From Bacillota bacterium (GTDB lineage: Bacteria > Bacillota > Limnochordia > Darwinibacteriales > DTU012), in contig DURM01000007.1 of the NCBI GenBank assembly GCA_012837335.1, forward strand, positions 31,127 to 95,126: DNA of 64,000 nt, written 5' to 3'. Position numbers and translations under genes: made by a program. Of the stretch, positions 802-53,599 are shown piece after piece (position 1 is the stretch's first letter; each line of letters opens with the position of its first letter). A model generated the notes under the pieces. It did not search any database. It saw nothing but the letters and a program-made list of their open reading frames with translations, and was not told the DNA's origin.

Positions 802-821
802 CAGGGACAGAGGGTGATCAA

Positions 822-2117: not shown

Positions 2118-2120
2118 GTT

Positions 2121-3134
2121 ATGGATAGACCAATTATTGCAGTCTCAACCGGCGACCCCTCAGGTATCGGGCCGGAGATTTCAATCTCGGCTCTGAAGCA
2201 TCAAGCAATCTATGGGGCCTGTCGGCCTTTTTTAATCGGAGATTTGGCAGTATTCCGCGATCTGGTGCCGGAGGAGTTGGGACTGAATCCGGTGGGACAG
2301 ATCGAGGATATGCGCTTTGAATACGGAACGATCGATCTTTTGGATCTGCAGCTGTTAGCGGAAGCTCCGCCGTTAGGCAGAGTCAACGCCGCAGCGGGCA
2401 ATGCTGCGTTTCACTATGTTAAGCGGGCGATTGAGCTGGCCCTTGCGGGAGTTGTTGATGCTACGGTGACCGGTCCCATCAACAAAGAAGCAATTAACCT
2501 TGCCGGGCACGCATTTGCCGGGCATACCGAGATTTACGCCCATTATACCAAGACCAAAGATTATGCGATGCTGTTAGCCCATGAGCATTTCCGCGTCATT
2601 CATGTTTCGACCCATGTATCGCTGCGGGAAGCCTGTGATTTAGTGACGAAGGAACGGGTGCTGAAGGTGATTAAAATTGCCGACCGCGCCTGCCGGCAGC
2701 TTGGGATTGCCGAGCCTAAAATTGCAGTCGCTGGTTTAAACCCCCATGCCGGGGAAAGCGGAATGTTCGGCCGGGAAGAAATTGAGGAAATCATCCCAGC
2801 GGTGAATGCTGCCAAGGCACTTGGACTGGATGTGGATGGACCGATTCCGCCGGATACCGTGTTTCCGAAGTTAAACGGCAAACTCTATGATATCTGTGTG
2901 TGCATGTACCATGATCAGGGCCATATTCCCACCAAACTGCTGGGCTTCACCTGGAATGAACAGGAAGGGAAATGGAATTCGGTGAGCGGCGTCAATATCA
3001 CGATGGGCCTGCCGATTATCAGGGTTTCGGTTGATCACGGCACTGCTTACGATATAGCCGGCAGGGGGATTGCATCTGAGCGATCGCTGGTAAGCGCCAT
3101 TGAATACGCAGTGCAGCTTGCCAAAAACCGCTAA
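2121..3134 (+). CDS. pdxA2: PdxA-family NAD-dependent dehydrogenase, PdxA2-like (4-phospho-D-threonate/erythronate dehydrogenase type)
   Basis: N-terminus MDRPIIAVSTGDPSGIGPEI and HVSTHVSLREA / AGLNPHAGE motifs are typical of the PdxA family. The PdxA2 assignment rests on the adjacent DUF1537 kinase. Confidence 0.7.
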   Translation: MDRPIIAVSTGDPSGIGPEISISALKHQAIYGACRPFLIGDLAVFRDLVPEELGLNPVGQIEDMRFEYGTIDLLDLQLLAEAPPLGRVNAAAGNAAFHYVKRAIELALAGVVDATVTGPINKEAINLAGHAFAGHTEIYAHYTKTKDYAMLLAHEHFRVIHVSTHVSLREACDLVTKERVLKVIKIADRACRQLGIAEPKIAVAGLNPHAGESGMFGREEIEEIIPAVNAAKALGLDVDGPIPPDTVFPKLNGKLYDICVCMYHDQGHIPTKLLGFTWNEQEGKWNSVSGVNITMGLPIIRVSVDHGTAYDIAGRGIASERSLVSAIEYAVQLAKNR

Positions 3135-3162
3135 CGAAGAAACGCAGAGAGGAGCTGATGGG

Positions 3163-4050
3163 ATGGAGTTGTGCAGAGGGATTATTCCGGCAATTTTAAC
3201 GCCTTTTACAGCCAGCGAGGACATCAATTTTCCTGAACTGCGCCGGCACGTGCGGCGAATGCTGGATGCCGGGGTGCACGGGATTTTCTGCCTGGGTACG
3301 AATGGAGAGTTCTATGCCTTAAGTGAAGAGGAAAAATATCAGGTTGTGGAAGCAGTGGTTGATGAGGTTAATGGACAGGTTCCGGTCTACGCCGGATCGG
3401 GAGAGATCGCAACTCGAACGGTTATCCGGCTCACTAAGCAGTTTCAAAAGTTGGGAGCCGATGCGGTATCGATTGTAACGCCTTATTTTATTAATCCATC
3501 TCAGCATGAGCTGTACCACCATTACCGTCGAATCGCGGAAGCAGTCGATCTCCCCATCATTCTCTACAATATTCCCATGCGGACTCATGTTAATCTAGAA
3601 CCGGAAACAGTGGCAGCTTTAGCAAGAGACTTGACCAATATTGTCGGGATTAAAGATTCCAGCGGTGACCTTCAGCTGACAAAGGCCTATATCGAGCAGT
3701 CCCCTCAAGATTTTGCTGTGATGGGCGGAAACGATGGCCTGATTCTTGATACTCTGCTGCTGGGAGGAACGGGTGCGATTGCCGCAACGGCGAATGTGAT
3801 CCCGGATATTCTCCTCAACATCTACAATGCTTACTCGGCCGGCGATCTGGAAACAGCGCGCAAGTGGCAGGAAAGGGTAGCGCCGCTGCGCCAAGATTTT
3901 AAGCTGGGAACCAGCCCAGGAGTGATCAAGGTGCAGGCCGGGCTGTGCGGTTTTGATGTTGGTCCCAGCCGTGGTCCGATTCGCTATGATGACCCGGAAG
4001 TAATTGCGAGAATCAAAGATAATATCAAGCGGAACTATAATTTGGGATAA
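3163..4050 (+). CDS. DHDPS/NAL-family class I aldolase (DapA-like; dihydrodipicolinate synthase / N-acetylneuraminate lyase family)
   Basis: ATG at 3163 lies 8 nt after GGAG; the ORF-track TTG at 3100 overlaps pdxA2. Motifs GIFCLGTNGEF, TPYF, and the Schiff-base lysine context IVGIKDSSGD are present. Confidence 0.65.
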   Translation: MELCRGIIPAILTPFTASEDINFPELRRHVRRMLDAGVHGIFCLGTNGEFYALSEEEKYQVVEAVVDEVNGQVPVYAGSGEIATRTVIRLTKQFQKLGADAVSIVTPYFINPSQHELYHHYRRIAEAVDLPIILYNIPMRTHVNLEPETVAALARDLTNIVGIKDSSGDLQLTKAYIEQSPQDFAVMGGNDGLILDTLLLGGTGAIAATANVIPDILLNIYNAYSAGDLETARKWQERVAPLRQDFKLGTSPGVIKVQAGLCGFDVGPSRGPIRYDDPEVIARIKDNIKRNYNLG

Positions 4051-4068
4051 CCTTAAAGGAGACCTGAT

Positions 4069-5376
4069 ATGGCTGTAAACCGCTTAACCATTAGTGAAAA
4101 TGGCAGGTTCTTAGCGCAGGATAATGGGCAGCCGTTTTTCTGGCTTGGTGATACCTGCTGGCTGCTGTTCAGCCGGTTGACCTTGGAGGAAGCTGAATAC
4201 TACTTAAGTGTGAGACAGCAGCAGGGTTATAATGTGATCCAGGCGTCTCTGATCCACGGTCTGCCGACACGAAACCGCTATGGGAACCGACCTTTTGTGG
4301 ATCATGACCCAGCGCAGCCGATCCTGCTGGATCATCCCGAAGGATATTGGGAGCATATCGATCGTGTACTTGCGGCAGCGGAAAAAAAGGGCCTGTACAT
4401 GGCCCTGGTACCGATGTGGGGATCGGTTGTCAGATATCAGAAAGCCACCGCAGAGCAGGCTGCGGCCTACGGCACTTGGCTTGCCCAGCGCTATCGCAGC
4501 AGACCGAATATTATCTGGCTTAACGGCGGCGACTGCCGGGGCGATGTTGGTCAAGAGATCTGGGATGCTTTAGGAGAAGCGATTAAAGCTGGCGATCCGA
4601 AGCATTTGATGACCTTTCATCCCCGGGGACGGACCCGATCCTCCATGTGGTTTCATGATCGCAGCTGGCTTGACTTTAATATGTTTCAGTCGGGACACTG
4701 CCGTTACGGCCAAGCTGGTAAGGACGGTATAACTGATCATTTTGCCCAGGACAACTGGCGGTACGTTGAGATCGACTATCAGCTGACACCGACTAAGCCA
4801 ACGATTGATGGGGAACCTTCATATGAAGCTATTCCCCACGGACTTCACGATTTTAACGAACCGCTGTGGCACGCAGCCGATGCGCGGCGATACGCGTATT
4901 GGTCAGTGTTTGCCGGTGCCTTTGGCCACACTTATGGGCACGCTTCAATCATGAAGTTGGCGTTTAAAGATTCTCCCAGCGCGAGTATGTATAAACCGTG
5001 GCAGGAAGCTGTATTTGATGAAGGCGGCACCCAAATGCAGCATTTGAAAAACTTAATTCTTGCTTATCCCTATTGGGAGCGAATCCCTGACCAAGCGGTA
5101 ATTGCAGGTGACGAGGGAGAAAAATACGAGCGTGTTGCAGTTACACGCGGTGCGGACTACTTACTTGCCTATGTTTATACCGGCAGGGAGTTTAGTCTCA
5201 GAATGGGAGTGATCAAAGGCGCCACAGTGCGGGCATTCTGGTATGACCCGCGTACGGGAGTGCGGACGCTGATTGGAGAAATGGAGAATTCCGGAGTGGT
5301 AAGTTTTAACCCTCCGGGCAAACATGAGGATGGCAATGACTGGGTGCTGATTCTCGAATCGGTATCCAGTGCTTAG
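4069..5376 (+). CDS. DUF4038 / glycoside hydrolase family 140-like protein (apiosidase family)
   Basis: FFWLGDTCWLLFSRLTLEEAEYYL, NVIQASLIH, IWLNGGD, FNMFQSGH and RRYAYWSVFAGAFGHTYGH match the DUF4038/GH140 TIM-barrel family. No signal peptide. It is a divergent paralog of 56741-58054. Confidence 0.55.
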   Translation: MAVNRLTISENGRFLAQDNGQPFFWLGDTCWLLFSRLTLEEAEYYLSVRQQQGYNVIQASLIHGLPTRNRYGNRPFVDHDPAQPILLDHPEGYWEHIDRVLAAAEKKGLYMALVPMWGSVVRYQKATAEQAAAYGTWLAQRYRSRPNIIWLNGGDCRGDVGQEIWDALGEAIKAGDPKHLMTFHPRGRTRSSMWFHDRSWLDFNMFQSGHCRYGQAGKDGITDHFAQDNWRYVEIDYQLTPTKPTIDGEPSYEAIPHGLHDFNEPLWHAADARRYAYWSVFAGAFGHTYGHASIMKLAFKDSPSASMYKPWQEAVFDEGGTQMQHLKNLILAYPYWERIPDQAVIAGDEGEKYERVAVTRGADYLLAYVYTGREFSLRMGVIKGATVRAFWYDPRTGVRTLIGEMENSGVVSFNPPGKHEDGNDWVLILESVSSA

Positions 5377-5503: not shown

Positions 5504-5538
5504 GGGAGAGACCCGCGGAAGGGTCTCTCTTTTTTAAA
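5504..5538 (+). terminator. Rho-independent terminator
   Basis: GAGAGACCC-gcggaa-GGGTCTCTC followed by TTTTTT. Confidence 0.7.
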
Positions 5539-5589: not shown

Positions 5590-5618
5590 TTGACTCAACC
5601 AGGTTAATGTAATATAAT
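5590..5618 (+). promoter_or_regulatory. Sigma-A-type promoter (TTGACT-17 nt-TATAAT) for the Yip1/large-protein/ABC operon
   Basis: TTGACT at 5590-5595, a 17-nt spacer, TATAAT at 5613-5618, then a ~130-nt leader. Confidence 0.6.
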
Positions 5619-5753
5619 AATTACAGATGTTAAAGACGGACTAAAATATGTCGTTAAAGTGAAGATAGTGCGTAAGATGTAATGTAAACTGCAGCTGATA
5701 TTTCAGCTGAACTATCCGGGAAGGTGATTTGTGTGCGGTGCAGAGGACTGATA

Positions 5754-7895
5754 ATGGGATCATTAGTATTTTTGATACTAATGAGTTTTTATTTTCCTGC
5801 TGATGCGGCTATGTATAAAAGCTATGTCTTTGATGCATGGGGCAGGGCTGTGCCTACACCAGAACCTTATGAACCGGTTCGGATTATTTATGGCTCGGAT
5901 ATAGGCGTTGGTGAACTGATCGGTCCGGAGGATTTGTTTGTTGCTCCGGACAACACGCTGTATATAGTCGATACCCGCAACAACCGGATTGTTAGAACGA
6001 CCAGCAATTTTGAGCTGCTTGAGGTATACGCTGAGTTTGAACGGGCAGACGGCACCAAGGATCGCTTTAACAATCCGCTGGGAGTCTTTGTAACCGATGA
6101 AGGGCATATGTTTGTGGCGGATACGAACAATGGCCGCATTGTTCGCTTTGATGAAAACGGTCGCTTTATGATGACAATTGAAGCTCCGGAAAAGACTTAT
6201 CCGGAAGCATTCCCCGCGTATTTCCAGTTCCGGCCGACCAAAATTGCCATCGATCAAGTTGGCAGGCTCTATGTGACAAGCGCCGGACTGTATGAGGGTT
6301 TAATTGAGCTTGATCTCAACGGCAACTTCCGCACCTTTATGGGCGCACCCCCGGTTTACGTGGGAATCTGGGATTACTTCTGGGGCCGGATAGCCACCGA
6401 TGAGCAGCGGCAGAGACGCCAGCTCAATCTTCCAACTGAGTACAGCAGTATGGACCTGGACGCACGCGGTTTCATTTATACAACCGTATCCGGCGGTGAC
6501 ATTGATGTTACTGAGGTGGTCCGCCAGTTAAGTCCGGCGGGTAAGGATATCCTTAAGCGGGATGGTTTCTGGCCTCCCATGGGCGATATCAATGTGTTTG
6601 ACGAAATGCTTCTTTCGGAAGTGACCGGCTACTCGCTGCTGGTGGATATTATCTGTCGGGAAAACGGCATTTACAGTGTCCTGGATCAGCGGCGGGGCAG
6701 AATCTTTACCTATGATAATCATGGCAATTTGTTATATGTTTTCGGCGGTCTCGGCCAGGGTACAGGCTTGTTTGTTCGCGCGGTAGCCATTGAGCAGCTG
6801 GGCGATCAGCTGCTGGTTCTGGACAGCCGCAATAACAGCATTACTGTGTTTGAACCCACCAAATACGCTCAGCTGATTCATCAGGCGATTGATGAGTATG
6901 AGCAGGGACGCTATGAAGATTCAGCCGCTCTATGGTTTGAGGTAATGAAATATAATGCCAACTATGAGCTGGCTTATTCAGGTGTGGGAGATGCGTACCT
7001 TCGGCAGGGCGATTATGAGCAGGCCATGCTCTATTATCGTTTAGGCAACGACCGGCCTGGCTACTCGGACGCGTTTTACCGCTACCGGCGGGAATTGATG
7101 AATGAGTATTTCGGAACGTTTATGAACTGGGTGTTGGTGATCGCAGCTGTAATCTTTGCGGCTGCAAAGCGCCAGTGGATTCCCAGAGCCAAGGCAAAGT
7201 ACCGCACCAGCCAGCTGGCAGCAGCGCTGGCAAGCGAGCGGGTGCAGCAGAACCGGGTTTATGCGGCAGTAAAGGGCACCTTAAGCAAGATGCGCTATGC
7301 TCTGCATGTCATCTTCCATCCTTTTGATGGTTTCTGGGATTTGAAATACGATAACCGCGGTTCCTTTGCTGCGGCAACGGTGATTTTGCTTATGGCTGCG
7401 CTGTCCTTCGTCTTTATGCGCCAGTACACAGGATTTGTACTGAACTACAACCGTATTGAAGATCTCAATATCTTTGTCGAGGCTGTCAGCATCATTATTC
7501 CATTCTTACTCTGGTGCGTGGTTAACTGGGGTCTGACAACCCTGATGGACGGCAAGGGAAGAATGATTGATATTTATATCGCGGGAGCTTATGCGCTGAC
7601 ACCGATGGTGCTGATTTTTATCCCGGCGACTATTTTCAGCAACTACATCACTGTCGATGAAGGCACTTTTTACTATCTCCTGGTCACGATCGGTACAGTG
7701 TGGAGCTTATCCCTGCTCTTCCTTGGTGCCGGGGTGATTCATGAGTATGGTTTCGGGAAAACCATCTTTACTACAGCAGCTACGATTGTCGGTATCGGAA
7801 TTGTCCTCTTTGTGGGACTGCTGTTCTTTGACGTAATTGACCGGATGAGCTTGTTTATCCAGGATCTATATACAGAAATTGCACTGCGGTTATAA
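5754..7895 (+). CDS. Secreted NHL-repeat beta-propeller + TPR-like region + C-terminal Yip1-like multipass membrane domain protein
   Basis: ATG at 5754 lies 7 nt after AGAGGA and gives the signal-peptide-like MGSLVFLILMSFYFPADA. NHL repeats appear as YIVDTRNNRIVR, FVADTNNGRIVRFD and LLVLDSRNNSITVF. The TPR-like YEQGRYEDSAALWFEVMKYNANYELAYSGVGDAYLRQGDYEQA follows. At least five hydrophobic helices sit in the last ~250 aa (Yip1/DUF1282-like). Confidence 0.5.
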   Translation: MGSLVFLILMSFYFPADAAMYKSYVFDAWGRAVPTPEPYEPVRIIYGSDIGVGELIGPEDLFVAPDNTLYIVDTRNNRIVRTTSNFELLEVYAEFERADGTKDRFNNPLGVFVTDEGHMFVADTNNGRIVRFDENGRFMMTIEAPEKTYPEAFPAYFQFRPTKIAIDQVGRLYVTSAGLYEGLIELDLNGNFRTFMGAPPVYVGIWDYFWGRIATDEQRQRRQLNLPTEYSSMDLDARGFIYTTVSGGDIDVTEVVRQLSPAGKDILKRDGFWPPMGDINVFDEMLLSEVTGYSLLVDIICRENGIYSVLDQRRGRIFTYDNHGNLLYVFGGLGQGTGLFVRAVAIEQLGDQLLVLDSRNNSITVFEPTKYAQLIHQAIDEYEQGRYEDSAALWFEVMKYNANYELAYSGVGDAYLRQGDYEQAMLYYRLGNDRPGYSDAFYRYRRELMNEYFGTFMNWVLVIAAVIFAAAKRQWIPRAKAKYRTSQLAAALASERVQQNRVYAAVKGTLSKMRYALHVIFHPFDGFWDLKYDNRGSFAAATVILLMAALSFVFMRQYTGFVLNYNRIEDLNIFVEAVSIIIPFLLWCVVNWGLTTLMDGKGRMIDIYIAGAYALTPMVLIFIPATIFSNYITVDEGTFYYLLVTIGTVWSLSLLFLGAGVIHEYGFGKTIFTTAATIVGIGIVLFVGLLFFDVIDRMSLFIQDLYTEIALRL

Positions 7896-7918
7896 CGTTT
7901 TCAAGGGGAGAGATCAGA

Positions 7919-10753
7919 GTGAAAAAGCGGCTGGTATACCAACACATATTTGTAACCTTGATGGCATTAGGAGTGATCCTGGCGGGAACCTGCCAAGTTT
8001 TTGCCCAACTGGATAACTTTCAGCTTGCTGCCGCTAATGAATACCTCAATCTGTATATTAATCCTGAGACAGCTGAAGCCGCAGTTGAAGACCGGGCATC
8101 CGGAAAAATGTGGTTTACCAATCCTCAGGATCGGGCGGCCACCAGCCGCGGCACTGTGCTGCAGCGGTTAAGCAGCCAGTTTACCATTGTCTATCATAAT
8201 GAGAATATCATTGAAGTCGCTAAAGACAATTACCGCTACTGCATTACTTACGAGCAGTTCGAGATTACTCCCATTGAACAGGGAGTGCGGTTTGACTACA
8301 CAATCGTGGAAGAATGGAAGCCGGAGCACTATCTGCCCCAGATGATCAGCCAAGAGCGGATGGATGAGCTGATTTTAGGGAAAATTGCCAGCGCAAAAGA
8401 CCAGCAGACTGTGCTCGGTGTATACAATTTAATAATGCTGGCTCCTGTAGGTGATGGAGAGCGCTTGGCCATTAGAGGCTTAGATCAGGACAAGGTTTTC
8501 GGTGAATATGACGTTGTGGTTCTTAACCCGGATTACCTGGAGCAGCAGGAGACCCTGGCGGCTCTCCAAGCTGAACAGGCAGCCGCTGCGGATGAGGAGG
8601 AGAAAGCAAAACTCCAGTCTCAGATCGATAAACTGCAGCAGCAGATGAATAAAACTAAGGAAGATTTGACTCTGCGGCTTCTCCGCGTCATTCAGGGCAG
8701 CCGCGCTGATTTGGATAAAATTGATGACATTACTCCCGAGGATATGAGCCAGCTCGTCAATACGCCTACTTATCTGATGGCTCAGGTGCCGGCATTTCGC
8801 CTCACCGGAGTGCAGGCAGTTGTGGTCGAAACGGGCTATACCCCGATAGATGCGGGTTTAGATCATGAAATGAACAATCTTGATCCACCGCTTCCGAACC
8901 TGGAAATTTTCCAGGTACCAATTGAGTATGTTTTGGATGGGCCGAATCTGCTGGTGCGGATTCCCGCCAAGGACATTGTGTATCCGATTGATGTGGAAGA
9001 CACACTTGGTGAGAAGTATACGTTCCCGCTGCTGAGGATCAGTGTCTTAGAGTGGTTCGGAGCAGCCGGAGCTGAGCAAGATGGATACATTCTTGTCCCT
9101 GATGGCTCAGGTGCTTTAATCTACTTAAACAACGGCCGCATTAACGCTTCCGCGTTTAATGTTCCGGTTTACGGCCGCGACAATTCCCTTGATCTTCTCA
9201 AAGAAGTCCAGAATTACCCGGAGATTATTCGGCTGCCGGTCTTTGGTTTAAAGCAGGAGGATCAGGCGTTCTTTGCCATTATTGAAGAAGGAGCTCCGCT
9301 GGCAAGAATCAGAGCAGATATATCAGGACGGGCTGCCAACTACAACCAAGTTTACGCGGAATTTGTCCCCCTGCCGTCAGGTGAGATTTCGTACCGGATC
9401 GAAGATGTCAGTTCCGGGCGAATTCCAACCTACCAAGCAAGGAAATATGAAGGCGATTTTGTCATCCGCTTTGCTTTTCTGACCGGTGAAAAAGCTGATT
9501 ACGCCGGGATGGCTGAGTGCTACCGCAGTTATCTTACTGAGCGCTATGATTTTACACCGGTGGAAAGCAGACCTAGTATTCCGTTTTATCTGGAACTGAT
9601 TGGTGCCATCGATAAGCTGGAACCGGTTTTAGGTATTGCCCGGACAGTGACTCATCCCTTAACCACTTTCAGTCAGGCGCAAGAAATTGCCGCCGACCTT
9701 GGTGAGCAGGGGATAGAACAGATTCAGCTGAAGTATACCGGCTGGCTTCGGGGCGGTGTAAATCACCATTATCCTGACCAGGCTGCGGCAGAAAAGGTTT
9801 TGGGCGGAGAAGCTGATTTTCGCGATCTCATTGCTTTCATGGAAGAGCAGGGCTATGAACTCTATCCGAGCGTTGGTTTTATGCGGGTTTACCGCACCAG
9901 CTTTTTCAGCAAGTTCAGCCCGCGCAAGCACGCAGCGCGCTTTTTGGACCAGCTGCCAGCTCGCGCCCATAGGTTTTATTTGGATTCCTTTGAGCGGAAC
10001 TCATCCGCCTTTGAATATCTGTTATCCCCAGGCAGACTACCTTGGCTGGTGGACAGCTTTATGCAGGACTACCAGAAATACGGTTTGAACAGCATCTCCT
10101 TATTTGATATGGCCCGGGAAGTAAACTCAGATTTTGTCGATAAAGCCGAAGTTGTTATCGATCGGGTCCAGGCTGAACAGCTTGTTTCCGAGCAGCTGGA
10201 GAAGATTAAAGCATCCGGATCCAAGCTGATGGTCGATCGCGGCAATGCCTATGCGCTTCCCTACGCTGATGCAATTGTCAACCTGCCTACTTCCAGCAGT
10301 GGGTATAGTTTAGTAAATGCAAGCATTCCTTTTTATCAGATGGTAATCCACGGCTTAATTGATTACGCTGGAGAGCCGATCAATCTCGCTTCCAACCAGA
10401 CAAAGGCGGTGTTGAGGATGCTGGAGTCAGGAGGATATCCGTACTTTATCGGCAGTTATGCTGAGTCCTTTGAAGTCAAAAACACTGACTTTGAACATTT
10501 ATACGCTCTGCATTATCGGGATTGGCTCGATCATGCCGCTGAGGTTTATCGGGTAGCAAATGAAGTGCTCAAGGATGTGCAGGATCAGCGAATTGTGGAC
10601 CACAGGATTCTGGCGGACGGTGTCCACCAAACCACCTATGCAAACGGCAAGTCAATAATCGTTAACTACAACCGAGAAGCAGTGACTGTTGACGGCAGAT
10701 GGATTGGTGCAGAGAACTTTATTGTATTGGAGGGCGGAGTTTATGAACATTAA
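7919..10753 (+). CDS. Large secreted hypothetical protein (944 aa) with signal peptide and coiled-coil; DUF5696-like, possibly a distant glycoside hydrolase
   Basis: GTG start after AGGGGAGAG. Signal peptide MKKRLVYQHIFVTLMALGVILAGTCQVFAQ. Coiled-coil QQETLAALQAEQAAAADEEEKAKLQSQIDKLQQQMNKTKEDL. No recognisable catalytic motif. The family call is from memory of Paenibacillus-type loci. Confidence 0.35.
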   Translation: MKKRLVYQHIFVTLMALGVILAGTCQVFAQLDNFQLAAANEYLNLYINPETAEAAVEDRASGKMWFTNPQDRAATSRGTVLQRLSSQFTIVYHNENIIEVAKDNYRYCITYEQFEITPIEQGVRFDYTIVEEWKPEHYLPQMISQERMDELILGKIASAKDQQTVLGVYNLIMLAPVGDGERLAIRGLDQDKVFGEYDVVVLNPDYLEQQETLAALQAEQAAAADEEEKAKLQSQIDKLQQQMNKTKEDLTLRLLRVIQGSRADLDKIDDITPEDMSQLVNTPTYLMAQVPAFRLTGVQAVVVETGYTPIDAGLDHEMNNLDPPLPNLEIFQVPIEYVLDGPNLLVRIPAKDIVYPIDVEDTLGEKYTFPLLRISVLEWFGAAGAEQDGYILVPDGSGALIYLNNGRINASAFNVPVYGRDNSLDLLKEVQNYPEIIRLPVFGLKQEDQAFFAIIEEGAPLARIRADISGRAANYNQVYAEFVPLPSGEISYRIEDVSSGRIPTYQARKYEGDFVIRFAFLTGEKADYAGMAECYRSYLTERYDFTPVESRPSIPFYLELIGAIDKLEPVLGIARTVTHPLTTFSQAQEIAADLGEQGIEQIQLKYTGWLRGGVNHHYPDQAAAEKVLGGEADFRDLIAFMEEQGYELYPSVGFMRVYRTSFFSKFSPRKHAARFLDQLPARAHRFYLDSFERNSSAFEYLLSPGRLPWLVDSFMQDYQKYGLNSISLFDMAREVNSDFVDKAEVVIDRVQAEQLVSEQLEKIKASGSKLMVDRGNAYALPYADAIVNLPTSSSGYSLVNASIPFYQMVIHGLIDYAGEPINLASNQTKAVLRMLESGGYPYFIGSYAESFEVKNTDFEHLYALHYRDWLDHAAEVYRVANEVLKDVQDQRIVDHRILADGVHQTTYANGKSIIVNYNREAVTVDGRWIGAENFIVLEGGVYEH

Positions 10754-11648
10754 ATTGCCGCGCTTAACTCTCAGGCGCAAGCGGGCGATGTGGGGGTATG
10801 TGTTTACAGCTCCTTTTGCCATTGGTTTTGTTCTCTTTTTCCTGGCGCCGATGCTGCAGTCAATCCAATTTGCCTTTAACGAGCTGACCATGACTGCTTC
10901 AGGATTCAATCTGCACAATGTAGGCTGGGAGAATTTTCGGTATGTGCTGCAGGTCGACCCTGATTTTCTCCAGATCTTTACAGAAACCACTTTAGGAATT
11001 CTGATCGATATTCCGGCTGTAATAATCTTCAGCTTTTTTGCAGCCAGTCTCTTAAACCAAAGGTTCCGCGGCCGCACGATTGCGCGGGTGATCTTCTTTA
11101 TGCCGGTAGTGCTGACAGCCGGTGTAATCTACGAGCTGGAAGTCCAAGACATTTTCCACCACATGCGTGCTTATGTCCCGGGGCAGGATGGATTCATCTC
11201 CGGATCTCAGGCTCTGATTGGACTGATGTTTAGGCTGCAGATACCCGCGGCCTTTGTCCAGTACATCATTACGGCGGTTGGCCGCATCCCTGCAATCATT
11301 AATGCGTCAGCTATTCCGATCCTGATCTTTTTAGCAGGACTGCAGGGGATTCCTTCGTCACTGTATGAATGCGCCAAAATCGAAGGTGCTACCGGGTGGG
11401 AGAGTTTTTGGAAGATTACCTTTCCGCTGATCTCGCCCCTGTTTTTGACCAATATCGTTTATATTATTGTTGATTCGTTTACCACCCCCGCTAACCAGCT
11501 TGTTGACCACATATATAAAACGGCATGGCTGCGTAATATGTTTGGCGCGAGTGTGGCCATGACCTGGATGTACTTTGCTGCTATTGCCGTGATTATTCTG
11601 CTGGTTTTTGCAGTCTTATCAAGACGGGTTGTCTATATGGAGGAGTGA
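10743..11648 (+). CDS. Carbohydrate ABC transporter permease (MalF/UgpA-type)
   Basis: ATG at 10743 overlaps the upstream stop. Six TM helices and the EAA-like loop region (YECAKIEGATGWESFWKITFPLI) are present. Confidence 0.75.
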   Translation: MNIKLPRLTLRRKRAMWGYVFTAPFAIGFVLFFLAPMLQSIQFAFNELTMTASGFNLHNVGWENFRYVLQVDPDFLQIFTETTLGILIDIPAVIIFSFFAASLLNQRFRGRTIARVIFFMPVVLTAGVIYELEVQDIFHHMRAYVPGQDGFISGSQALIGLMFRLQIPAAFVQYIITAVGRIPAIINASAIPILIFLAGLQGIPSSLYECAKIEGATGWESFWKITFPLISPLFLTNIVYIIVDSFTTPANQLVDHIYKTAWLRNMFGASVAMTWMYFAAIAVIILLVFAVLSRRVVYMEE

Positions 11649-11652
11649 CAAA

Positions 11653-12621
11653 ATGGGTATGGAAGCTAGGATTGCTGCGAAGGATGAAATGCGCCATGTC
11701 AGCAAGTACAGCACATCAAGCTACTGGGCTGCTACCGCTTGGAGCCTGGTTAGGGCAGTCTTGATTGCGGGCATCTGCTTTATCATTGTCTACCCGGTGC
11801 TGGTCAAGTTTTCATCTTCGCTGATGACTGAAGCGGATTTGTTCGATGTCACCGTGCGCTGGGTTCCCCGCCGCTTTAACATCCGCACTGTTGTTGGTAA
11901 TTATGTAGATGTTTACCGGGAGATGGATTATCTGCGGGCGCTGTTTAACTCAACGGTATTAGCCTTAACTGTGGCTGTGCTGCAGGCGGCATCGTGTACC
12001 GTTATCGGCTACGGTTTGGCGCGGTTTGAGTTTTTCGGCAACCGCCTCATGTTCGCGATGGTTATCTTTACCCTGCTGGTGCCTCCTCAGATGGTAAACA
12101 TACCGCTGTTCTTGAATTTTCGGACCTTTGATTTATTTGGATTGTTGGAAAACCCGATCAATCTCATCGGCACATATTGGCCGTTTGTGCTCACTTCGAT
12201 AACCGGATTAGGTCTCAAAAACGGACTTTTTATCTACATTATGCGGCAGTTTTTTAAAGGCATGCCGAAGAGCTTGGAAGAAGCAGCCCTGGTGGATGGA
12301 GCGGGACAGCTGCGCACGTTCTTTAGAATTATGCTGCCGGGTGCCAAGGTTTCTCTGATTATTGTCTTCTTATTCTCGTTTGTCTGGCAGTACAATGATT
12401 TGTTCTTAACGTCCATGTATATGCGGCAGACTCAGACGCTGCTGCCGTTTAAACTGAGAAACCTGACTTTGATTTTTGACAACCTGGATTACTCGGATGA
12501 GTATATTTCGGTGATTATCAACACAGGAATGATTATGTTCATTACGCCGGTACTACTGCTGTACGCTTTCCTGCAGAGATACTTTATTGAAAGTATTGAG
12601 CGGACTGGAATTGTGGGTTAG
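11653..12621 (+). CDS. Carbohydrate ABC transporter permease (MalG/UgpE-type)
   Basis: ATG at 11653 after GGAGTGA. EAA motif EEAALVDGAGQLRTFFRIMLP is present. Confidence 0.75.
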   Translation: MGMEARIAAKDEMRHVSKYSTSSYWAATAWSLVRAVLIAGICFIIVYPVLVKFSSSLMTEADLFDVTVRWVPRRFNIRTVVGNYVDVYREMDYLRALFNSTVLALTVAVLQAASCTVIGYGLARFEFFGNRLMFAMVIFTLLVPPQMVNIPLFLNFRTFDLFGLLENPINLIGTYWPFVLTSITGLGLKNGLFIYIMRQFFKGMPKSLEEAALVDGAGQLRTFFRIMLPGAKVSLIIVFLFSFVWQYNDLFLTSMYMRQTQTLLPFKLRNLTLIFDNLDYSDEYISVIINTGMIMFITPVLLLYAFLQRYFIESIERTGIVG

Positions 12622-12632
12622 GGGCTGATTTT

Positions 12633-14909
12633 GTGAAACAAAGCAATAATTTTATCGGAGATATGCTCGACTTTGATTTGCCGGAGGCAGCTGATGATGT
12701 TTTCTGGCTTGGCGGGAGACCGACGGCGGTTCGGGCAGAAAATGGCGCTGCAGTGATTACAATACCCTTTCAAGCCCAGACCAGGCCGAAATTAAATCCT
12801 GATCCTTCGCAAGCGCCGAAATCCTATGATCTGATTGTCCGAGCTTACGGAGAGAAGATCGTCCGCTGTTCCATTTCTTTTGGCAGTGACTTTCCGGAAG
12901 ATGACACCAATGTGATGATGGAATGGGATCCGGCTCTTAAGCAGGAGCCATTAGAAGTTAGACCAGCTGCAGCAGGCTGGGATATAGTTGACAGCAGCGG
13001 AAATGTGCGGATGACCATCACGACCGCAGAGCAACCCATTAAAAAGTGGAGCTCGCTGCTGCCGCCGCCGCAGGATATCTTTGCTGCTGCCGTCTACCCC
13101 GATGGTAAAACCGCTGTGCCCTTTATGGCTTATGATACTTTTTCACCGGGGCACATCGATTCCGCCAGCTTGGGCTATGTAGAGCGTGATTCTAAACCAA
13201 ACCGCTCTGTGTTTTCGCTGTACGCAGGACCGGATGAAAAGTTTGCCGGAACCGGCGAGCGGTTTTTGGGCATGAACCTTTCCGGACAAACCATTATTTT
13301 AGAAAATGAGGATGCGGCCGGTGCTAACAGCCGCAGGGCTTATAAAAACATTCCGTTTTACCTTTCCAGCCGCGGTTATGGACTCTTAATTATGACTTCC
13401 TACCATGTGCGGCTTTCTCTGGCCGATATCTCAACCAGAGCGGCTCAAGGGCTGGTTGAATCAGATCTTCTGGATCTGTTTTTTATCGGAGGCGAGACTC
13501 CGGCTGAGATTATTCGCGGTTACTGGCAGATAACCGGATATCCCCGGAATGTGCCGCTATGGTCATATGGTGTATGGATGAGCCGCATGACCTACTTTTC
13601 AGCCGAAGAAACGCTGGATATCGCCCGTAAGCTGAGGGAAGGCGGATATCCCTGCGATGTAATTCACCTTGATACCGGATGGTTCCGGAAAGATTGGCAG
13701 TGCGAGTGGGAGTTTAACGAAAGAACCTTCCCCGATCCCAAGGGCTACATGGGTCAGATGCGGGACATGGGGATCAGAATCTCGCTGTGGCAGACTCCAA
13801 ATGTTGCGAAGAAAACGAAGCATTACCAGACGGCCATCGAAAATGGCTATCTGCCCCGGAAGCGGGCTGCTTCAGGGGATGCTTCCAACTTCGGCGCGGT
13901 AGAATACGGCGGCCGGATTGATTTTACCAATCCGGAAGCGGTTAAGTGGTACCAGGGGCTTTTGAAAAATCTTTTTGATTTGGGTGCTGAAGTAATCAAA
14001 ACTGACTTTGGTGAGATGATTGATTCCAACGCTGAGTTTTTTAACGGCATGAGCGGTGAGGAACTCCACAATCTCTACGCTCTTTTGTACCAGAAAGCAG
14101 CTTTCGATATTACAGAAAAGACTAAAGGCCGGGATCAGGCCATAATTTGGGCGCGGGCCGGTTGGACAGGATGCCAGCGGTATCCAGTGCACTGGAACGG
14201 GGACTGCGCCAGCACTTGGGATGGTCTGGCGGGAACAATTCGGTCGGGACTGCACATCGGTGTTTCCGGATTTGCCTTTTGGAGCCATGATGTGGGAGGG
14301 TTTCATGGACTTCCGGATTTTATGAACAGCTGGCCCGATGAAAAATTGTATCTGCGCTGGACTCAAGTAGGCGTTTTTACCAGCCACATGCGCTATCACG
14401 GCACTAATCCCCGGGAACCTTATCTCTATCCGGAAGTAAGCGATTTGGTGAGGGAGTGGCTGAAACTCCGCTATGCTCTGATTCCGTATCTGGATGAGCA
14501 GGGCAAAAAGGCGGTCAGCAGCGGTTATCCTGTCCTGCGGGCTTTGATTTTCCATCATTATGATGATCCATTCTGCTGGTATATCGATGATCAGTTCTAC
14601 TGTGGTGATCAGCTCTTAATTGCGCCGATCCTGAATCCGGAAGGAATCAGAAATGTTTATCTGCCGGCAGGTCAGTGGACCGATTTTTGGACCGGTGAAG
14701 TGATTGTAGGACCGGTGATGTTAAAGGATGTCAAAGCGGAGCTGTCCCGGATTCCAGTTTACTGCGCAACCGGATCGAAGATTTCGGTTTATCCAGAGGT
14801 GGTGCAGCATACTGGTGAAATGGATTTGAATAAAACTGTCCACCTAAATTTTGACCAAACATATCGGGGCTTTGACCAGTCTATTTTAGGTAAAATCATT
14901 AAAATTTAG
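12633..14909 (+). CDS. Glycoside hydrolase family 31 (alpha-xylosidase/alpha-glucosidase-like)
   Basis: GTG start. GH31 catalytic region DVIHLDTGWF and KTDFGE (as in YicI), plus WNGDCASTWDGL. No signal peptide. Confidence 0.75.
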   Translation: MKQSNNFIGDMLDFDLPEAADDVFWLGGRPTAVRAENGAAVITIPFQAQTRPKLNPDPSQAPKSYDLIVRAYGEKIVRCSISFGSDFPEDDTNVMMEWDPALKQEPLEVRPAAAGWDIVDSSGNVRMTITTAEQPIKKWSSLLPPPQDIFAAAVYPDGKTAVPFMAYDTFSPGHIDSASLGYVERDSKPNRSVFSLYAGPDEKFAGTGERFLGMNLSGQTIILENEDAAGANSRRAYKNIPFYLSSRGYGLLIMTSYHVRLSLADISTRAAQGLVESDLLDLFFIGGETPAEIIRGYWQITGYPRNVPLWSYGVWMSRMTYFSAEETLDIARKLREGGYPCDVIHLDTGWFRKDWQCEWEFNERTFPDPKGYMGQMRDMGIRISLWQTPNVAKKTKHYQTAIENGYLPRKRAASGDASNFGAVEYGGRIDFTNPEAVKWYQGLLKNLFDLGAEVIKTDFGEMIDSNAEFFNGMSGEELHNLYALLYQKAAFDITEKTKGRDQAIIWARAGWTGCQRYPVHWNGDCASTWDGLAGTIRSGLHIGVSGFAFWSHDVGGFHGLPDFMNSWPDEKLYLRWTQVGVFTSHMRYHGTNPREPYLYPEVSDLVREWLKLRYALIPYLDEQGKKAVSSGYPVLRALIFHHYDDPFCWYIDDQFYCGDQLLIAPILNPEGIRNVYLPAGQWTDFWTGEVIVGPVMLKDVKAELSRIPVYCATGSKISVYPEVVQHTGEMDLNKTVHLNFDQTYRGFDQSILGKIIKI

Positions 14910-14956
14910 AGGTTAAGAAACGGTGTTATATATTAAGTAATTGGGAAAGATGCTCT

Positions 14957-14985
14957 TGATTTTTTAGCTGGAGACGCATATAATT
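14957..14985 (+). promoter_or_regulatory. Sigma-A-type promoter (TTGATT-17 nt-TATAAT) upstream of the solute-binding protein gene
   Basis: TTGATT at 14957-14962, TATAAT at 14980-14985, then a ~180-nt leader. Confidence 0.55.
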
Positions 14986-15167
14986 TAGATGAAGGTAAAA
15001 AATGCGTGTTGTTTTAGTAAATGCTAACTAAAAATTGACTAAAAAAGTTGGCTGGAGATCAGCGTCGGATTTAGTGCGGAAAGTACAAAACTGTCAAGGC
15101 TGCACTATCAGACTTATCGTTAGGGATGAGTCTGATTCAAAACAAAAATTAAGGAGGAGGTCTATTT

Positions 15168-16532
15168 ATGTTTACAAAGGGAAAAATGCTGGTTCCTAGT
15201 TTGATCCTGGTGATCGCGCTAGTTATGGCCAGCGGATTCGCAGCAGCCAATCAGGAGTTTGATTTCAATGGCGAAACATTGAAATTCCAAACTCGCTGGT
15301 GGGGTGTAACTCCACTTGGACCGAGAAACGAGTTTGACTGGTACGGTCCAGATTCACTGCTTCAAGCGCACATTGAAGAAATTGAGGAAATGTTTAACTG
15401 CAAGATCGAATGGGTTGAGCCCGGCGAGTGGTTTGGTGACCAATCATTCCTGGTAACCCACATGATGGCGGGAGATCTGCCGTTCCACTTCACTCACTTA
15501 GAAGAAGAAAGAATGGCGATTCAAGCTTCCCTGGGAACTCTCGCTCCTTTAGAAGATGTACTGGAAGACGACTTCTATGAAGGCTATCCAGATCTGTTCA
15601 AATCCGACGTTCGCAATCCCGGCTATACTTTCGGCAACCATGTCTACGGTTTTGAAGCGCTGAACTTCCAGCGGGAAGTTGTTGGTATTATTTGGAACAT
15701 TGATTTATTCGAGCGGGAAGGCCTGCCTAACCTCTATGAGCTGTACGAGAATGGCGAGTGGACCTATGAAGTAATGGCTGACATTGCCCGCAAAGCAACC
15801 AAGGATACAGACGGCGACGGCGTTATCGACCAAATGGGATTATATGTGGATCCCCAGAGATTCTATACTCACGCAGTCTATTCATTCGGCGGCTCCTTTG
15901 AAAGAAACGCCAACGGCAAGATCGAGTTTGCCCTTAACGATCCAAAATCACTGCAGGGTCTCGAGTTCGCAGTTGGATTGTTCAGAGAAGGCGTAGCTAA
16001 CGCTGACTATTGGGGCAAGCGTCGGGATGGTAACTTTGCAATGGGTTACTACTACGTCCATGACCTGCCGAACGTTGGTCAAAACTCCACCGATCGCTTC
16101 GGTATTGTTCCGCCGCCAAAAGGACCGGGCAGCGATGAGCACCTGGTCGACATCTGGAGTCAGTGGATGGGTGTTATTCCCCTTGGCGTTGAGAATCCAA
16201 GAGGCGTAATCGAAGTTGCTAAAGCGCTCTTCGGTTTAAGTGAACCTTACATCGCAGATATGAGCGCGTGGGAAGACAATTGGTGGTACGTATCACCGGG
16301 TCACGGCAACTACATCCAGGATATGGAAACATTTGAAAACTGGCAGTGGATGCTCGGTAACGCTAGAGGCCTGCTGGCACCGTACCTGAAGATGGCGATC
16401 AAGATGGCTGACTGGGATTGGTGGACTAAGTTCCATAACGCAGTTGTTACTGACGGCCAAAGTATCTCGGCTTACATTGATCAGTGGACACCAGTAATTC
16501 AAGCAGAATTGGATTCAGTACTAGGCCAATAA
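15168..16532 (+). CDS. Extracellular solute-binding protein (SBP family 1) of the sugar ABC transporter
   Basis: Strong RBS AAGGAGGAGG 7 nt upstream. N-terminal signal/anchor MLVPSLILVIALVMASGFAAANQ with no lipobox Cys. SBP_bac_1 hallmark YEVMADIARKATKDTDGDGVIDQMG. Confidence 0.6.
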   Translation: MFTKGKMLVPSLILVIALVMASGFAAANQEFDFNGETLKFQTRWWGVTPLGPRNEFDWYGPDSLLQAHIEEIEEMFNCKIEWVEPGEWFGDQSFLVTHMMAGDLPFHFTHLEEERMAIQASLGTLAPLEDVLEDDFYEGYPDLFKSDVRNPGYTFGNHVYGFEALNFQREVVGIIWNIDLFEREGLPNLYELYENGEWTYEVMADIARKATKDTDGDGVIDQMGLYVDPQRFYTHAVYSFGGSFERNANGKIEFALNDPKSLQGLEFAVGLFREGVANADYWGKRRDGNFAMGYYYVHDLPNVGQNSTDRFGIVPPPKGPGSDEHLVDIWSQWMGVIPLGVENPRGVIEVAKALFGLSEPYIADMSAWEDNWWYVSPGHGNYIQDMETFENWQWMLGNARGLLAPYLKMAIKMADWDWWTKFHNAVVTDGQSISAYIDQWTPVIQAELDSVLGQ

Positions 16533-16570
16533 GTGAAGGAGAAAGCATTTGACTTTTAATTTAAAAATGA

Positions 16571-16601
16571 AAAGAGCTAGATGAACAGTCTAGCTCTTTT
16601 C
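16571..16601 (+). terminator. Rho-independent terminator
   Basis: AGAGCTAGA-tgaacag-TCTAGCTCT followed by TTTT. Confidence 0.6.
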
Positions 16602-16645
16602 ACTACTATAGAAACCAGTTATTAGAAAAGTGGAGGAAAGAAGGT

Positions 16646-18005: not shown

Positions 18006-20018
18006 ATGAAATACGGAGTTTCATACTATCCTGAGCATAAACAGCGAGCTGAGATCGAGCAGGACATTCAATTGATGCAGGAGTTGGGGATCAACTTTGT
18101 CCGCATGGGCGAGTTTGCCTGGTGCAAATTTGAGCCGGTGGAAGGCCAGTATGAATTTGACTGGTTGGATCCGGTTATCGAAGAGCTGGGGCAGCTCGGT
18201 ATCCTGACCATTATCTGCACCCCAACTGCCTGCCCGCCCGCTTGGCTGGTAGAGAAGCACCCGGAGATTCTGTATGTGGATAACCGGGGCATGACCCGGC
18301 CTTTCGGCGGCAGGCGCAGCTACTGCTACAACAACCCGGTTTACCGGGAATATTCTCGGAAAATAGCTGAGGCAATCGGGAAGCATTATCGCGATAATCC
18401 CCATGTCTTTGCTTTTCAAATAGATAACGAATTGGCGCAGGAGGGCACCGGCCGCTGCCGCTGCCCTGTCTGCCGGGATAAGTTTCACGGCTGGCTGGAA
18501 GAAAAATATGGGACCATCGATGAGCTCAACCAGAAGCTGGGCACGATTTTCTGGGGGCAGACCTACGATCATTTCGGCCAGATCAATCCGCCGGTCAATT
18601 CCATCGAGCCCAATACCAACCAGGCAATCACGGCCTTTTTTGAAAACCCATCGCTGCGTTTAGATTTTGAACGGTTCTGCAGTGATTCCAATATCGAGTA
18701 CCAAAATATCCAAACGGAAGCGCTGCGCAAATACACCGATAAAGTCATCACAACCAATGCCACAGGGGTGGCTACTAACAGCATCAATTATTACAAAGCG
18801 TTTCAGGAACTGGATAGATACGCTTTCGATTATTACCCCAGCATCAGAGATCGGGAAGTCGATTCATTTCCCTATGCCCATGCCCGAGGGGTCCGCGGCG
18901 AGCAGTTCTGGCTGATGGAGTTTGTCTCCGGCGGCGGCCATGGTGCTTGGGGCGCAGGAAGGCTCCAGCACTATCCGGGAGCCCTGCAGCAGGCAGCGAT
19001 GCACGCATTTGCTTCCGGCGCTGAGCTGGTTGCCCATTTTCAGTTTCGGACTTTCCCCTTCGGAGCAGAACAGCTGAATTATGCGATTGTGGATATTGAC
19101 GGCATTCCCCGCCGCAAATTCTACGAAGTGCAGGCAGCAGCAGCTGATCTTAAAAAACTGGGAGAGATTCTGAAAAACTCGTCATTTAAGAACGAAGTGG
19201 CTTTATGCTTTGACTATGACGCTTTATGGGCCCTTAAGATTAAACCTGTTGCTAAGGACTTTGATTATGTCAAATTCTGCAGCGAGCTTTATAATGCTTT
19301 TGTCAGCCTTGGCGTCGGTGTGGATGTAGTCAGCTGTGAGGAAGATCTCAGCGGCTATAAGGCGGTGATTGTACCGACCCCGGCGGTGATGGACGGCCGC
19401 TTTAAACAGCGGTTGAAAGACTATGTGAATGCTGGAGGCATTCTGCTGTCCACCTTCCTGGCAGGCATTAAAAACGAGTACAATGTGGGCATTGCTGAAT
19501 CGCTCCCCTGCGGTCTGACCGATTTATTCGGCATCCGAGTTGGCGAAGTGGAGCCGGTCTTTGAGCGCACTGTTTCTCAGATTGCTGTGACTGTTGGTGA
19601 CAAGGAATATCAGGGTGCTAATAAATATTGGACCGAGACCCTAGAGGAAAATGGAGCTGAGATCATTGGTTTTTACGCTGACACCTTCAGGAAAGGTACC
19701 GGCGTGATCAGCAGAAATAATTATGGCAGGGGTCGCGCTTATTATCTCGGTACGGCGCTGGCCAGTGATCTGATGAAAACTTTAGCCCAGCTGATCATTG
19801 CTGACGGGAAAATTACCCAGGTGCCATTTCCGGTACTGCCGGGTGTGGAAGTAATTGTTCGGGAATATGCAGGCCGGAAAGTCTACTGTATCTTCAATTT
19901 CTGCCAGGAAGCAGTCGAGTTTGAACTCGGCGGGACTTACACTGATCTCCTGAACGATGCGGCAGTGGCTAACCTGAAACTTGATGCAAAGAGCTATGCA
20001 TTTATTATGGATAATTGA
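18006..20018 (+). CDS. Beta-galactosidase, glycoside hydrolase family 42
   Basis: ATG at 18006 after AAAAGGAG; the upstream part of the ORF-track ORF overlaps GH29. MKYGVSYYPEH, FAWCKFEPVEG, and the GH42 Cys cluster CRCPVCRD are present. Confidence 0.8.
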   Translation: MKYGVSYYPEHKQRAEIEQDIQLMQELGINFVRMGEFAWCKFEPVEGQYEFDWLDPVIEELGQLGILTIICTPTACPPAWLVEKHPEILYVDNRGMTRPFGGRRSYCYNNPVYREYSRKIAEAIGKHYRDNPHVFAFQIDNELAQEGTGRCRCPVCRDKFHGWLEEKYGTIDELNQKLGTIFWGQTYDHFGQINPPVNSIEPNTNQAITAFFENPSLRLDFERFCSDSNIEYQNIQTEALRKYTDKVITTNATGVATNSINYYKAFQELDRYAFDYYPSIRDREVDSFPYAHARGVRGEQFWLMEFVSGGGHGAWGAGRLQHYPGALQQAAMHAFASGAELVAHFQFRTFPFGAEQLNYAIVDIDGIPRRKFYEVQAAAADLKKLGEILKNSSFKNEVALCFDYDALWALKIKPVAKDFDYVKFCSELYNAFVSLGVGVDVVSCEEDLSGYKAVIVPTPAVMDGRFKQRLKDYVNAGGILLSTFLAGIKNEYNVGIAESLPCGLTDLFGIRVGEVEPVFERTVSQIAVTVGDKEYQGANKYWTETLEENGAEIIGFYADTFRKGTGVISRNNYGRGRAYYLGTALASDLMKTLAQLIIADGKITQVPFPVLPGVEVIVREYAGRKVYCIFNFCQEAVEFELGGTYTDLLNDAAVANLKLDAKSYAFIMDN

Positions 20019-20044
20019 TTCGGTCAGCAAAGGGGGAGAGGGGA

Positions 20045-22759: not shown

Positions 22760-22779
22760 ATGAGTGGAGGCGGTGCCGA

Positions 22780-38321: not shown

Positions 38322-38390
38322 GAAATACTGCAGGAAACGCAGTCGCAAAGCCGAATAACATTGGCGAGCATAATTACAGGAGGGCAGATT

Positions 38391-49559: not shown

Positions 49560-49575
49560 CTACAGGAGGGCTAAG

Positions 49576-50295: not shown

Positions 50296-50302
50296 CTGGA
50301 TT

Positions 50303-50326: not shown

Positions 50327-50361
50327 GTCTGATTTTTACACTTGAATATCTGAAAATTGAT

Positions 50362-53589: not shown

Positions 53590-53599
53590 AATTATTAAT

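Follow-up and report, generated by a model that had tools for sequence, protein, structure and literature searches.

ATP-binding cassette (ABC) importers of the CUT1 type in Firmicutes consist of a binding protein and two permeases, served by a shared MsmX-type ATPase that is encoded elsewhere in the genome. An additional membrane subunit is reportedly present in the YknWXYZ system of Bacillus, where the Yip1-domain protein YknW is said to work as a fourth component together with an ABC transporter. Among the enzymes acting on glycans, the group formed by the glycoside hydrolase (GH) families GH13, GH101 and GH129 carries its catalytic residues at the C-terminal ends of strands 4 and 5 of the barrel. 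GH129-type relatives are the α-N-acetylgalactosaminidase NagBb of Bifidobacterium bifidum (5wzn) and the 3,6-anhydro-D-galactosidase DagB (ZgGH129) of Zobellia (5opq). Here we describe a gene cassette that combines features of these systems. It is located on a 64,000-nucleotide stretch of DNA from a Bacillota bacterium (contig DURM01000007.1), referred to below as the window, and encodes a Yip1-domain membrane protein, a 944-residue protein of the family DUF5696 and two ABC permeases. The cassette probably represents an ABC importer that takes up oligosaccharides by way of a binding protein and is equipped with two dedicated, outward-facing accessory proteins, the Yip1 protein and DUF5696.

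A DUF5696 profile search of species-representative genomes returned more than 590 loci, of which the closest 80 were retrieved and analysed; since these are the closest, more distant members of the family could break the pattern described here. The conserved unit consists of the gene for an NHL/TPR/Yip1 protein (TPR, tetratricopeptide repeat) followed by DUF5696, permease 1 and permease 2, with a binding protein encoded nearby. The Yip1 protein is located directly upstream of DUF5696 in all 74 loci with sufficient flanking sequence, and both permeases are located directly downstream in all 71 testable loci. A homologue of the binding protein is found within 10 kb of the cassette in 50 of 55 fully flanked loci. 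Chance or an annotation artefact was rejected on these synteny counts. A reverse check, starting from two Yip1 proteins with 43–44% identity to that of the window, gave the same gene order with overlapping stop and start codons; in the window, the DUF5696 gene (stop codon 10751–10753) and permease 1 (ATG at 10743) overlap by 11 nucleotides.

The four core proteins also diverge together. Their pairwise identity matrices correlate with r = 0.93–0.97 (55 loci), and in paralogous cassettes within one genome all four have diverged to similar degrees; one metagenome-assembled genome carries six copies. DUF5696 diverges fastest of the four, and its family is large, with no fewer than 4036 clusters at 50% identity (E ≤ 1e-30). 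A first-pass annotation of the window, made from the letters of the sequence, had pointed to a pairing of Yip1 and DUF5696 genes beside sugar ABC permeases in Paenibacillus and Clostridia. The pairing proved to be invariant in the loci counted above, and the cassette was found in Paenibacillus, Cohnella and Lederbergia as well as in metagenome-assembled genomes labelled Clostridia, Limnochordia and Halanaerobiales. The same annotation had treated six genes as one module. Conservation extends to the Yip1 protein, DUF5696, both permeases and the nearby binding protein, but not to the GH31 gene, which follows permease 2 only in the closest locus (L001); GH31 is locus-specific cargo and not part of the cassette core.

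The first gene of the unit encodes a multi-domain membrane protein with Pfam matches to Yip1 (E = 5e-15), NHL (E = 1.5e-13) and TPR. The match to Yip1 (PF04893) reaches 56.2 bits against a gathering threshold of 28.6 and covers profile positions 2–172 of 173. Numbered from the GTG at 5724, the protein comprises a signal peptide, an NHL propeller (residues 33–378), TPR helices (380–440), one membrane helix (about 464–487), a basic linker containing HPFDGFWDLKY and the Yip1 domain (528–722). An AlphaFold2 model with a predicted local distance difference test (pLDDT) score of 85.6 shows five long Yip1 helices at residues 548–722. The propeller is six-bladed and superimposes on the NHL domains of TRIM71, Thin and TRIM2 with Foldseek TM-scores of 0.77–0.83; NHL propellers were the only structures matched in this search, the membrane domain giving nothing informative. 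From the basic character of the linker that follows the single membrane helix, propeller and TPR are predicted to face the outside of the cell membrane. The protein is encoded by two abutting genes in 36 loci and by a single gene in 27, the window being among the latter. In the split form, the first gene (about 486 residues) provides propeller, TPR, one membrane helix and a basic tail, and the second (about 208 residues) provides the Yip1 domain, beginning at a conserved HPFxGFWDLKYE motif. This alternation of fused and split forms links the ectodomain to the Yip1 membrane domain.

The DUF5696 protein matches its Pfam family (PF18952) with an E-value of 5.5e-202 (673 bits against a cut-off of 25.6; profile positions 20–612 of 612), and its AlphaFold2 model is confident (pLDDT 91.3). 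Behind an N-terminal signal or anchor helix, in which the signal peptide ends between VFA and Q, the model displays an N-terminal β-sandwich broken by an insert of about 200 residues, a TIM barrel (residues 556–860 approximately, nucleotides 9584–10498) and a C-terminal β-sandwich. The first-pass annotation had described a coiled-coil protein and had suggested a search for a hidden fold. The coiled coil is real, but is confined to the insert (residues 204–261, nucleotides 8528–8701) of this multi-domain protein, and the hidden fold is the TIM barrel. Homologues of about 940 residues, which stem from digester genomes and carry plain signal peptides, possess the coiled-coil insert; the lipoprotein forms of about 850 residues in Paenibacillus and Bacillaceae lack it.

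The three-domain architecture with a central (β/α)8 barrel is of the GH129 type, and GH129 structures are the closest. The DUF5696 profile retrieved GH129-type structures from the PDB with E-values of 3.5e-9 to 1e-6, and hhalign aligned it to NagBb, whose sequence was taken from gut metagenome contigs, with a probability of 95.4% and an E-value of 2e-8 at an identity of only 16–17%. A profile restricted to the barrel aligned with PDB entries no further than strand 2–3, and a homologue search with a DagB fragment as query returned no matches. Because of the low identity, and because no GH129 Pfam model matched DUF5696 at E ≤ 0.01, DUF5696 appears to be a separate family with GH129 architecture and not a member of GH129. 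The first-pass annotation had regarded a known glycosidase fold with a characterised close homologue as an argument against its own reading; a known glycosidase fold is present, but the characterised relatives are distant (profile E-values of 1e-8 to 1e-9).

Both permeases are divergent members of BPD_transp_1, with Pfam scores of 26.4 bits (exactly at the cut-off) for permease 1 and 48.7 bits for permease 2. Their best NCBIfam similarities are UgpA/MalF and UgpE/MalG, and EAA-like loops can be read from both translations. The binding protein has no match in Pfam or NCBIfam and resembles the sugar-binding protein AbnE (6rjy) with an E-value of 1.7e-6, a weak but specific similarity. With this match, and with Pfam matches for Yip1/NHL/TPR, DUF5696, BPD_transp_1 and GH31, the family labels of the first-pass annotation are borne out, and all six genes and both promoter-like sites lie where it had placed them (Table 1). 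The permeases of the cassettes are 40–78% identical among themselves and form a clade of their own, with an identity of only about 25% to the second permease pairs that occur in many of these loci. An internal contrast is provided by the window itself, in which a canonical CUT1 system at 50426–53589 lacks Yip1 and DUF5696 genes and has permeases (51775–53589) scoring 55.9 and 59.6 bits. Including a histidine kinase and an AraC-type response regulator, this canonical importer with its binding protein and two permeases extends over 50426–56610.

In many Paenibacillus-type loci the operon comprises nine genes. Besides the cassette, it encodes a binding protein of the lipoprotein type, another protein of about 965 residues that carries a binding-protein domain at its C terminus, and a second pair of permeases. 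Giant proteins of about 965–1030 residues adjoin the cassette in L070 (2933–5830) and L026 (2957–5851), and similar ones are found in L007, L009–L011, L017 and L020. They combine a C-terminal SBP_bac_1/8 domain with some 580 N-terminal residues without a Pfam match, are usually followed by the second permease pair and may be membrane-anchored binding proteins with glycan-binding modules.

BPD_transp_1 permeases with EAA loops, in combination with binding proteins, are marks of ABC importers. This bears on the notion that the cassette is not a nutrient importer but a system for export or remodelling of envelope material or exopolysaccharide, as might be suspected from the Yip1-domain protein YknW accompanying an ABC exporter in Bacillus and from an ABC exporter gene (ABC_membrane and ABC_tran) near some Paenibacillus loci. 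The kind of permease and the occurrence of binding proteins led us to reject an exporter role, and with catabolic enzymes, sugar kinases, isomerases and AraC/LacI/GntR regulators as neighbours of the cassette, such a function seems most improbable.

How the importer might work can be sketched from these components. On the outer side of the cytoplasmic membrane, DUF5696 would bind a complex glycan, and the propeller/TPR/Yip1 protein would act as a scaffold, associating physically with DUF5696 and holding it beside the permeases. The hand-over would run from DUF5696 to the cognate divergent binding protein, which would pass the product to the permeases for ATP-driven uptake, the ATPase being supplied from elsewhere in the genome. 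In the window's clade, DUF5696 would probably also clip the glycan as a retaining α-glycosidase-type enzyme by means of Asp730 and Asp773. These two residues are aligned by hhalign to the nucleophile Asp435 and the acid/base Glu478 of NagBb, respectively, and are situated at the C-terminal ends of barrel strands 4 and 5 in the AlphaFold2 model. Position 730 is Asp in 81 of 118 homologues, and position 773 is Asp or Glu in 80 of 118. In all 29 homologues with at least 47% identity to the window protein both positions are Asp, whereas in two groups of more distant homologues an acidic pair is found in only 12 of 49 and 14 of 40 members, respectively. As judged from alignment and model, the DUF5696 protein of the window is plausibly a retaining α-glycosidase-type enzyme.

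Several observations weigh against this picture. Both positions are acidic in only 55 of the 118 DUF5696 homologues; among complete genomic cassettes, 27 of 55 have the acidic pair and 28 lack at least one of its residues. The near-invariant residues of the family are others than this pair, namely D395, D421, E456, R517, W609, D738, R749, N776, N822, E836 and K854. The residue mapping itself was obtained by hhalign at about 17% identity and is gapped near strand 4. Moreover, DUF5696 has K/R-Y-S/T in place of the HLD motif that follows strand 2 in NagBb, whose His and Asp belong to the metal site and are changed in the 5wzq mutant, so that the calcium-site residues are not conserved. With regard to the cassette as a whole, synteny and joint divergence would also fit mere co-regulation, the promoters are matches to the consensus alone, and the substrate is assigned from gene context alone. 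Finally, no open reading frame of the window displays a Walker A or LSGGQ motif of an ABC ATPase. Since the ATPases of CUT1 systems in Firmicutes are commonly encoded elsewhere, the missing ATPase does not exclude a CUT1-like importer. Some of the ATPase-motif matches in related loci belong to ABC exporters of about 740 residues with DUF1854 neighbours (Pfam-checked for L026), which were set aside as unrelated to the cassette.

As the acidic pair is found in only about half of the DUF5696 family, hydrolysis by this pair cannot be the family-wide function, and the conserved role of the cassette would be independent of it. The residue pattern suggests for the other clades either a shifted chemistry, with D738 (conserved in 113 of 118 homologues, about 96%) as an alternative nucleophile candidate if the alignment is shifted, or binding only in many members. 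Taken further, the latter would make DUF5696 a mainly non-catalytic heavy chain that serves glycan binding or the assembly, stability or gating of the permeases, by analogy to CD98hc/rBAT with SLC7, catalysis in some clades being a relic. This appears improbable to us. The strict retention of both aspartates in the window's clade suggests selection for catalysis there, and a displaced alignment would leave D738 as a possible true nucleophile. Furthermore, GH129-like enzymes of the DagB type already use a set of catalytic residues different from that of NagBb (PMC5698469), so that variable positions may mean altered, not lost, chemistry.

The GH129-like fold, together with the acidic residues that the window's clade has at the catalytic positions of NagBb, would likewise suit a free-standing secreted or periplasmic hydrolase of a new GH129-related family that pre-digests glycans. 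The Yip1 protein would then have a separate task in sensing or envelope maintenance, and both would be co-transcribed with an ordinary ABC importer without forming a complex. Operons of Firmicutes often mix enzymes with transporters, and the fast divergence of DUF5696 is what would be expected of a substrate-facing part. We nevertheless consider this explanation rather unlikely. For a free-standing enzyme, an invariant place between the same two gene families (71 of 71 and 74 of 74 loci) would be unexpected amid such variable enzyme neighbours (131 Pfam families in 91 open reading frames of 25 loci), the cassette is kept although about half of the DUF5696 family is devoid of the acidic pair, and the cassette permeases form their own clade.

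The importer with two dedicated accessory proteins may be extended, tentatively, to a new class of ABC importers in Firmicutes. In this class, a GH129-derived ectoprotein, catalytic in some clades and a pseudo-enzyme in others, and a propeller/TPR/Yip1 scaffold would be stoichiometric transporter subunits, forming a functional counterpart of the utilisomes of Bacteroidota that captures and imports large, highly branched glycans, here rhamnogalacturonan-II (RG-II)-like ones, for wholly cytoplasmic breakdown; this is conceivable, yet clearly the more doubtful part of our proposal. The first-pass annotation had suggested a surface glycan-capture or processing machine feeding the transporter, an interpretation that is partly supported: the cassette may form such a machine, whose GH129-type positions appear to be kept in the window's clade and lost in about half of the family.

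Whether the machine would be exposed at the surface depends on the envelope of the host. Signal peptides were assigned by visual inspection of the translated sequences. In Paenibacillus, Lederbergia and Gracilibacillus, canonical lipoboxes are present on DUF5696 and on the binding proteins; the corresponding proteins of the window's clade have plain signal peptides without lipoboxes. Both are thus predicted to be exported and, at least in hosts with one membrane, tethered to the membrane in which the permeases sit. The host organisms of this clade, which come from digesters and biogas reactors and bear the labels Bacillota, Limnochordia or Halanaerobiales, may have two membranes; in that case the exported proteins of this lineage may be periplasmic rather than surface-exposed. 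At 59439–60608 on the minus strand, a sub-threshold match to the outer-membrane protein Wzi was observed (24.1 bits against a cut-off of 30.1), which together with the missing lipoboxes gives a faint hint of an outer membrane in the host.

The module is separated from the upstream GH140-type gene by a gap of 347 nucleotides. This gap holds the first promoter-like site, which closely follows a terminator-like hairpin and is the best such site in the 14 kb scanned; as a class, promoter-like sites are not enriched (21 found against 16.4 ± 4.0 in shuffles). It is plausible that the module has its own promoters, predicted from consensus matches at the two sites given in Table 1. Searches with Rfam at gathering thresholds and with ARAGORN found no riboswitch or RNA element in the whole window, including the 130-nucleotide leader.

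Table 1. Coordinates of the cassette, its flanking signals and selected carbohydrate-active genes in the window
Feature	Position	Strand	Remarks
Terminator-like hairpin	5504–5531	+	11 pairs, 6 of them G-C, then T-run; closes upstream GH140 gene, left edge of module
Sigma-70-like promoter site, TTGACT-17-TATAAT	5590–5618	+	11 of 12 consensus matches
NHL/TPR/Yip1 membrane protein	5754–7895	+	713 residues as called; 723 residues from GTG at 5724
DUF5696 protein, 944 residues	7919–10753	+	Open reading frame and Pfam; GH129-like overall fold
Asp730 codon	10106–10108	+	End of barrel strand 4; aligned to NagBb nucleophile Asp435
Asp773 codon	10235–10237	+	End of barrel strand 5; aligned to NagBb acid/base Glu478
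ABC permease 1, 301 residues	10743–11648 (start approximate)	+	Divergent CUT1-type membrane subunit, EAA-like loop
ABC permease 2, 322 residues	11653–12621	+	UgpE/MalG-like; classical EAA loop (LEEAALVDGAGQLRTFFRIMLP)
GH31 enzyme, 758 residues	12633–14909	+	Cytoplasmic, without signal peptide; three GH31 domains in Pfam
Second promoter-like site, TTGATT-17-TATAAT	14956–14984	+	10 of 12 consensus matches
Divergent solute-binding protein, 454 residues	15168–16532	+	Signal peptide, without lipobox cysteine
Long palindromic hairpin 3' of binding-protein gene	16566–16604		16 pairs; likely terminator, right edge of module
GH140-like apiosidase genes (two)	4069–5376 and 56741–58054		Pfam/NCBIfam
GH138-like α-galacturonidase	20015–22759		961 bits, below cut-off of 1300
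BT_1020-like propeller protein	27268–29094		
GH95	38361–40673		

The surroundings of the cassette differ between loci. Additional binding proteins are the commonest neighbour family, followed by GH95, GH43, GH130, GH4, GH106 and GH140; Paenibacillus loci carry GH10, GH43 and GH95. Such varied neighbours fit a generic role in uptake better than one fixed enzymatic specificity. In the window, the whole stretch has the appearance of an RG-II-type catabolic island (1–5376, 16646–40673 and 47526–59361). Besides the genes listed in Table 1, it contains GH29, GH42, GH2, GH115-like and GH63/MGH1-like genes, a fucose isomerase-like gene and an FGGY kinase. Judged by the RG-II system of Bacteroides, these enzyme families point to RG-II-like pectic glycans. 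None of the carbohydrate enzymes of the window has a signal peptide, as judged by eye, so that the cargo would have to enter the cell as a complex oligosaccharide. The gene context indicates that the cargo here is most likely a pectic, RG-II-like oligosaccharide that would be dismantled in the cytoplasm.

The GH31 protein reaches 479 bits with the NCBIfam α-xylosidase model, below the cut-off of 606. Its closest solved structure is the uncharacterised 5f7c (E = 1.5e-258), and its closeness to YicI-type α-xylosidases is only moderate. In an RG-II-like context, its target could be the linkage between 2-O-methyl-α-D-xylose and fucose, which Bacteroides thetaiotaomicron is not known to cleave.

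Further genes of the window deserve mention. Directly upstream, at 822–4050, lies a trio consisting of a DUF1537-type four-carbon acid-sugar kinase (SBD_N/NBD_C), a PdxA-family protein and a DHDPS-family aldolase. The trio also precedes the cassette in L001 and, speculatively, may be involved in breaking down an acid or branched sugar, for example apiose or one of its derivatives. A URO-D-family protein (22741–23925, E = 4e-10) is encoded among the glycosidases, with a similar gene in related loci, and may act on methylated sugars as an enzyme of the methyltransferase or demethylase type. The open reading frame at 118–801 has no Pfam match, and a large GAF-PAS-GGDEF-HD signalling protein (43803–46301) interrupts the run of carbohydrate genes.

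Our literature searches found no paper on DUF5696 or on the Yip1/DUF5696/permease cassette, in agreement with the first-pass annotation, which had named the pair as being without a published function. The fixed cassette and the GH129-type fold turn two families of hypothetical genes into a testable hypothesis on the uptake of complex plant glycans by Firmicutes. If the accessory proteins were true transporter subunits, they would represent a new architecture among ABC importers and would explain the use of RG-II-like substrates by cells with only cytoplasmic enzymes. They would also provide a marker gene set for glycan-utilisation loci in Firmicutes, and the kept or lost catalytic positions would make DUF5696 a natural case of the transition from enzyme to pseudo-enzyme. 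A 2026 review describes the uptake of pectin by Gram-positive bacteria as plain ABC import of pre-hydrolysed oligosaccharides (PMC13501991). A new importer class, if true, would contradict the view of Firmicutes as mere scavengers of such oligosaccharides via three-part ABC systems.

Comparison with known systems reveals likeness to several of them and identity with none. From NagBb and DagB, DUF5696 is set apart by its low sequence identity of 16–17%, by the insert of about 200 residues with the coiled coil, by the lack of the calcium-site residues and by variable catalytic positions. Moreover, DUF5696 is membrane-tethered, at least as predicted for one-membrane hosts, and genetically locked to an ABC permease pair, neither of which has been reported for NagBb or DagB. 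The cassette resembles CUT1 importers of Firmicutes, for instance the AbnE arabino-oligosaccharide system, in its two BPD_transp_1 permeases with EAA loops, its AbnE-like binding protein, the lack of an ATPase gene at the locus and the glycoside hydrolase surroundings. In contrast to these importers, permeases and binding protein are unusually divergent, and the stretch between promoter and permeases obligatorily codes for two additional proteins that face outwards or reside in the membrane.

With YknWXYZ, the cassette shares a bacterial Yip1-domain membrane protein that is encoded together with an ABC transporter. However, YknYZ is a MacB-like exporter with a membrane-fusion protein and YknW is devoid of a propeller/TPR ectodomain, whereas the partner in the cassette is an importer. 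The SLC3–SLC7 transporters with their heavy chains CD98hc and rBAT offer an analogy only, in that an ectodomain with a glycosidase fold serves a transporter; they are eukaryotic, disulfide-linked secondary transporters with a GH13-like fold, and homology does not go beyond the barrel superfamily. The Sus-like utilisomes of Bacteroidota, finally, are built from unrelated components and depend on a TonB-dependent transporter and SusD, both absent from the cassette, which would import across the cytoplasmic membrane by an ABC system. Nevertheless, both share a conserved transport core that is locked to outward-facing proteins for glycan binding or cutting and that occurs in many paralogues beside different sets of enzymes.

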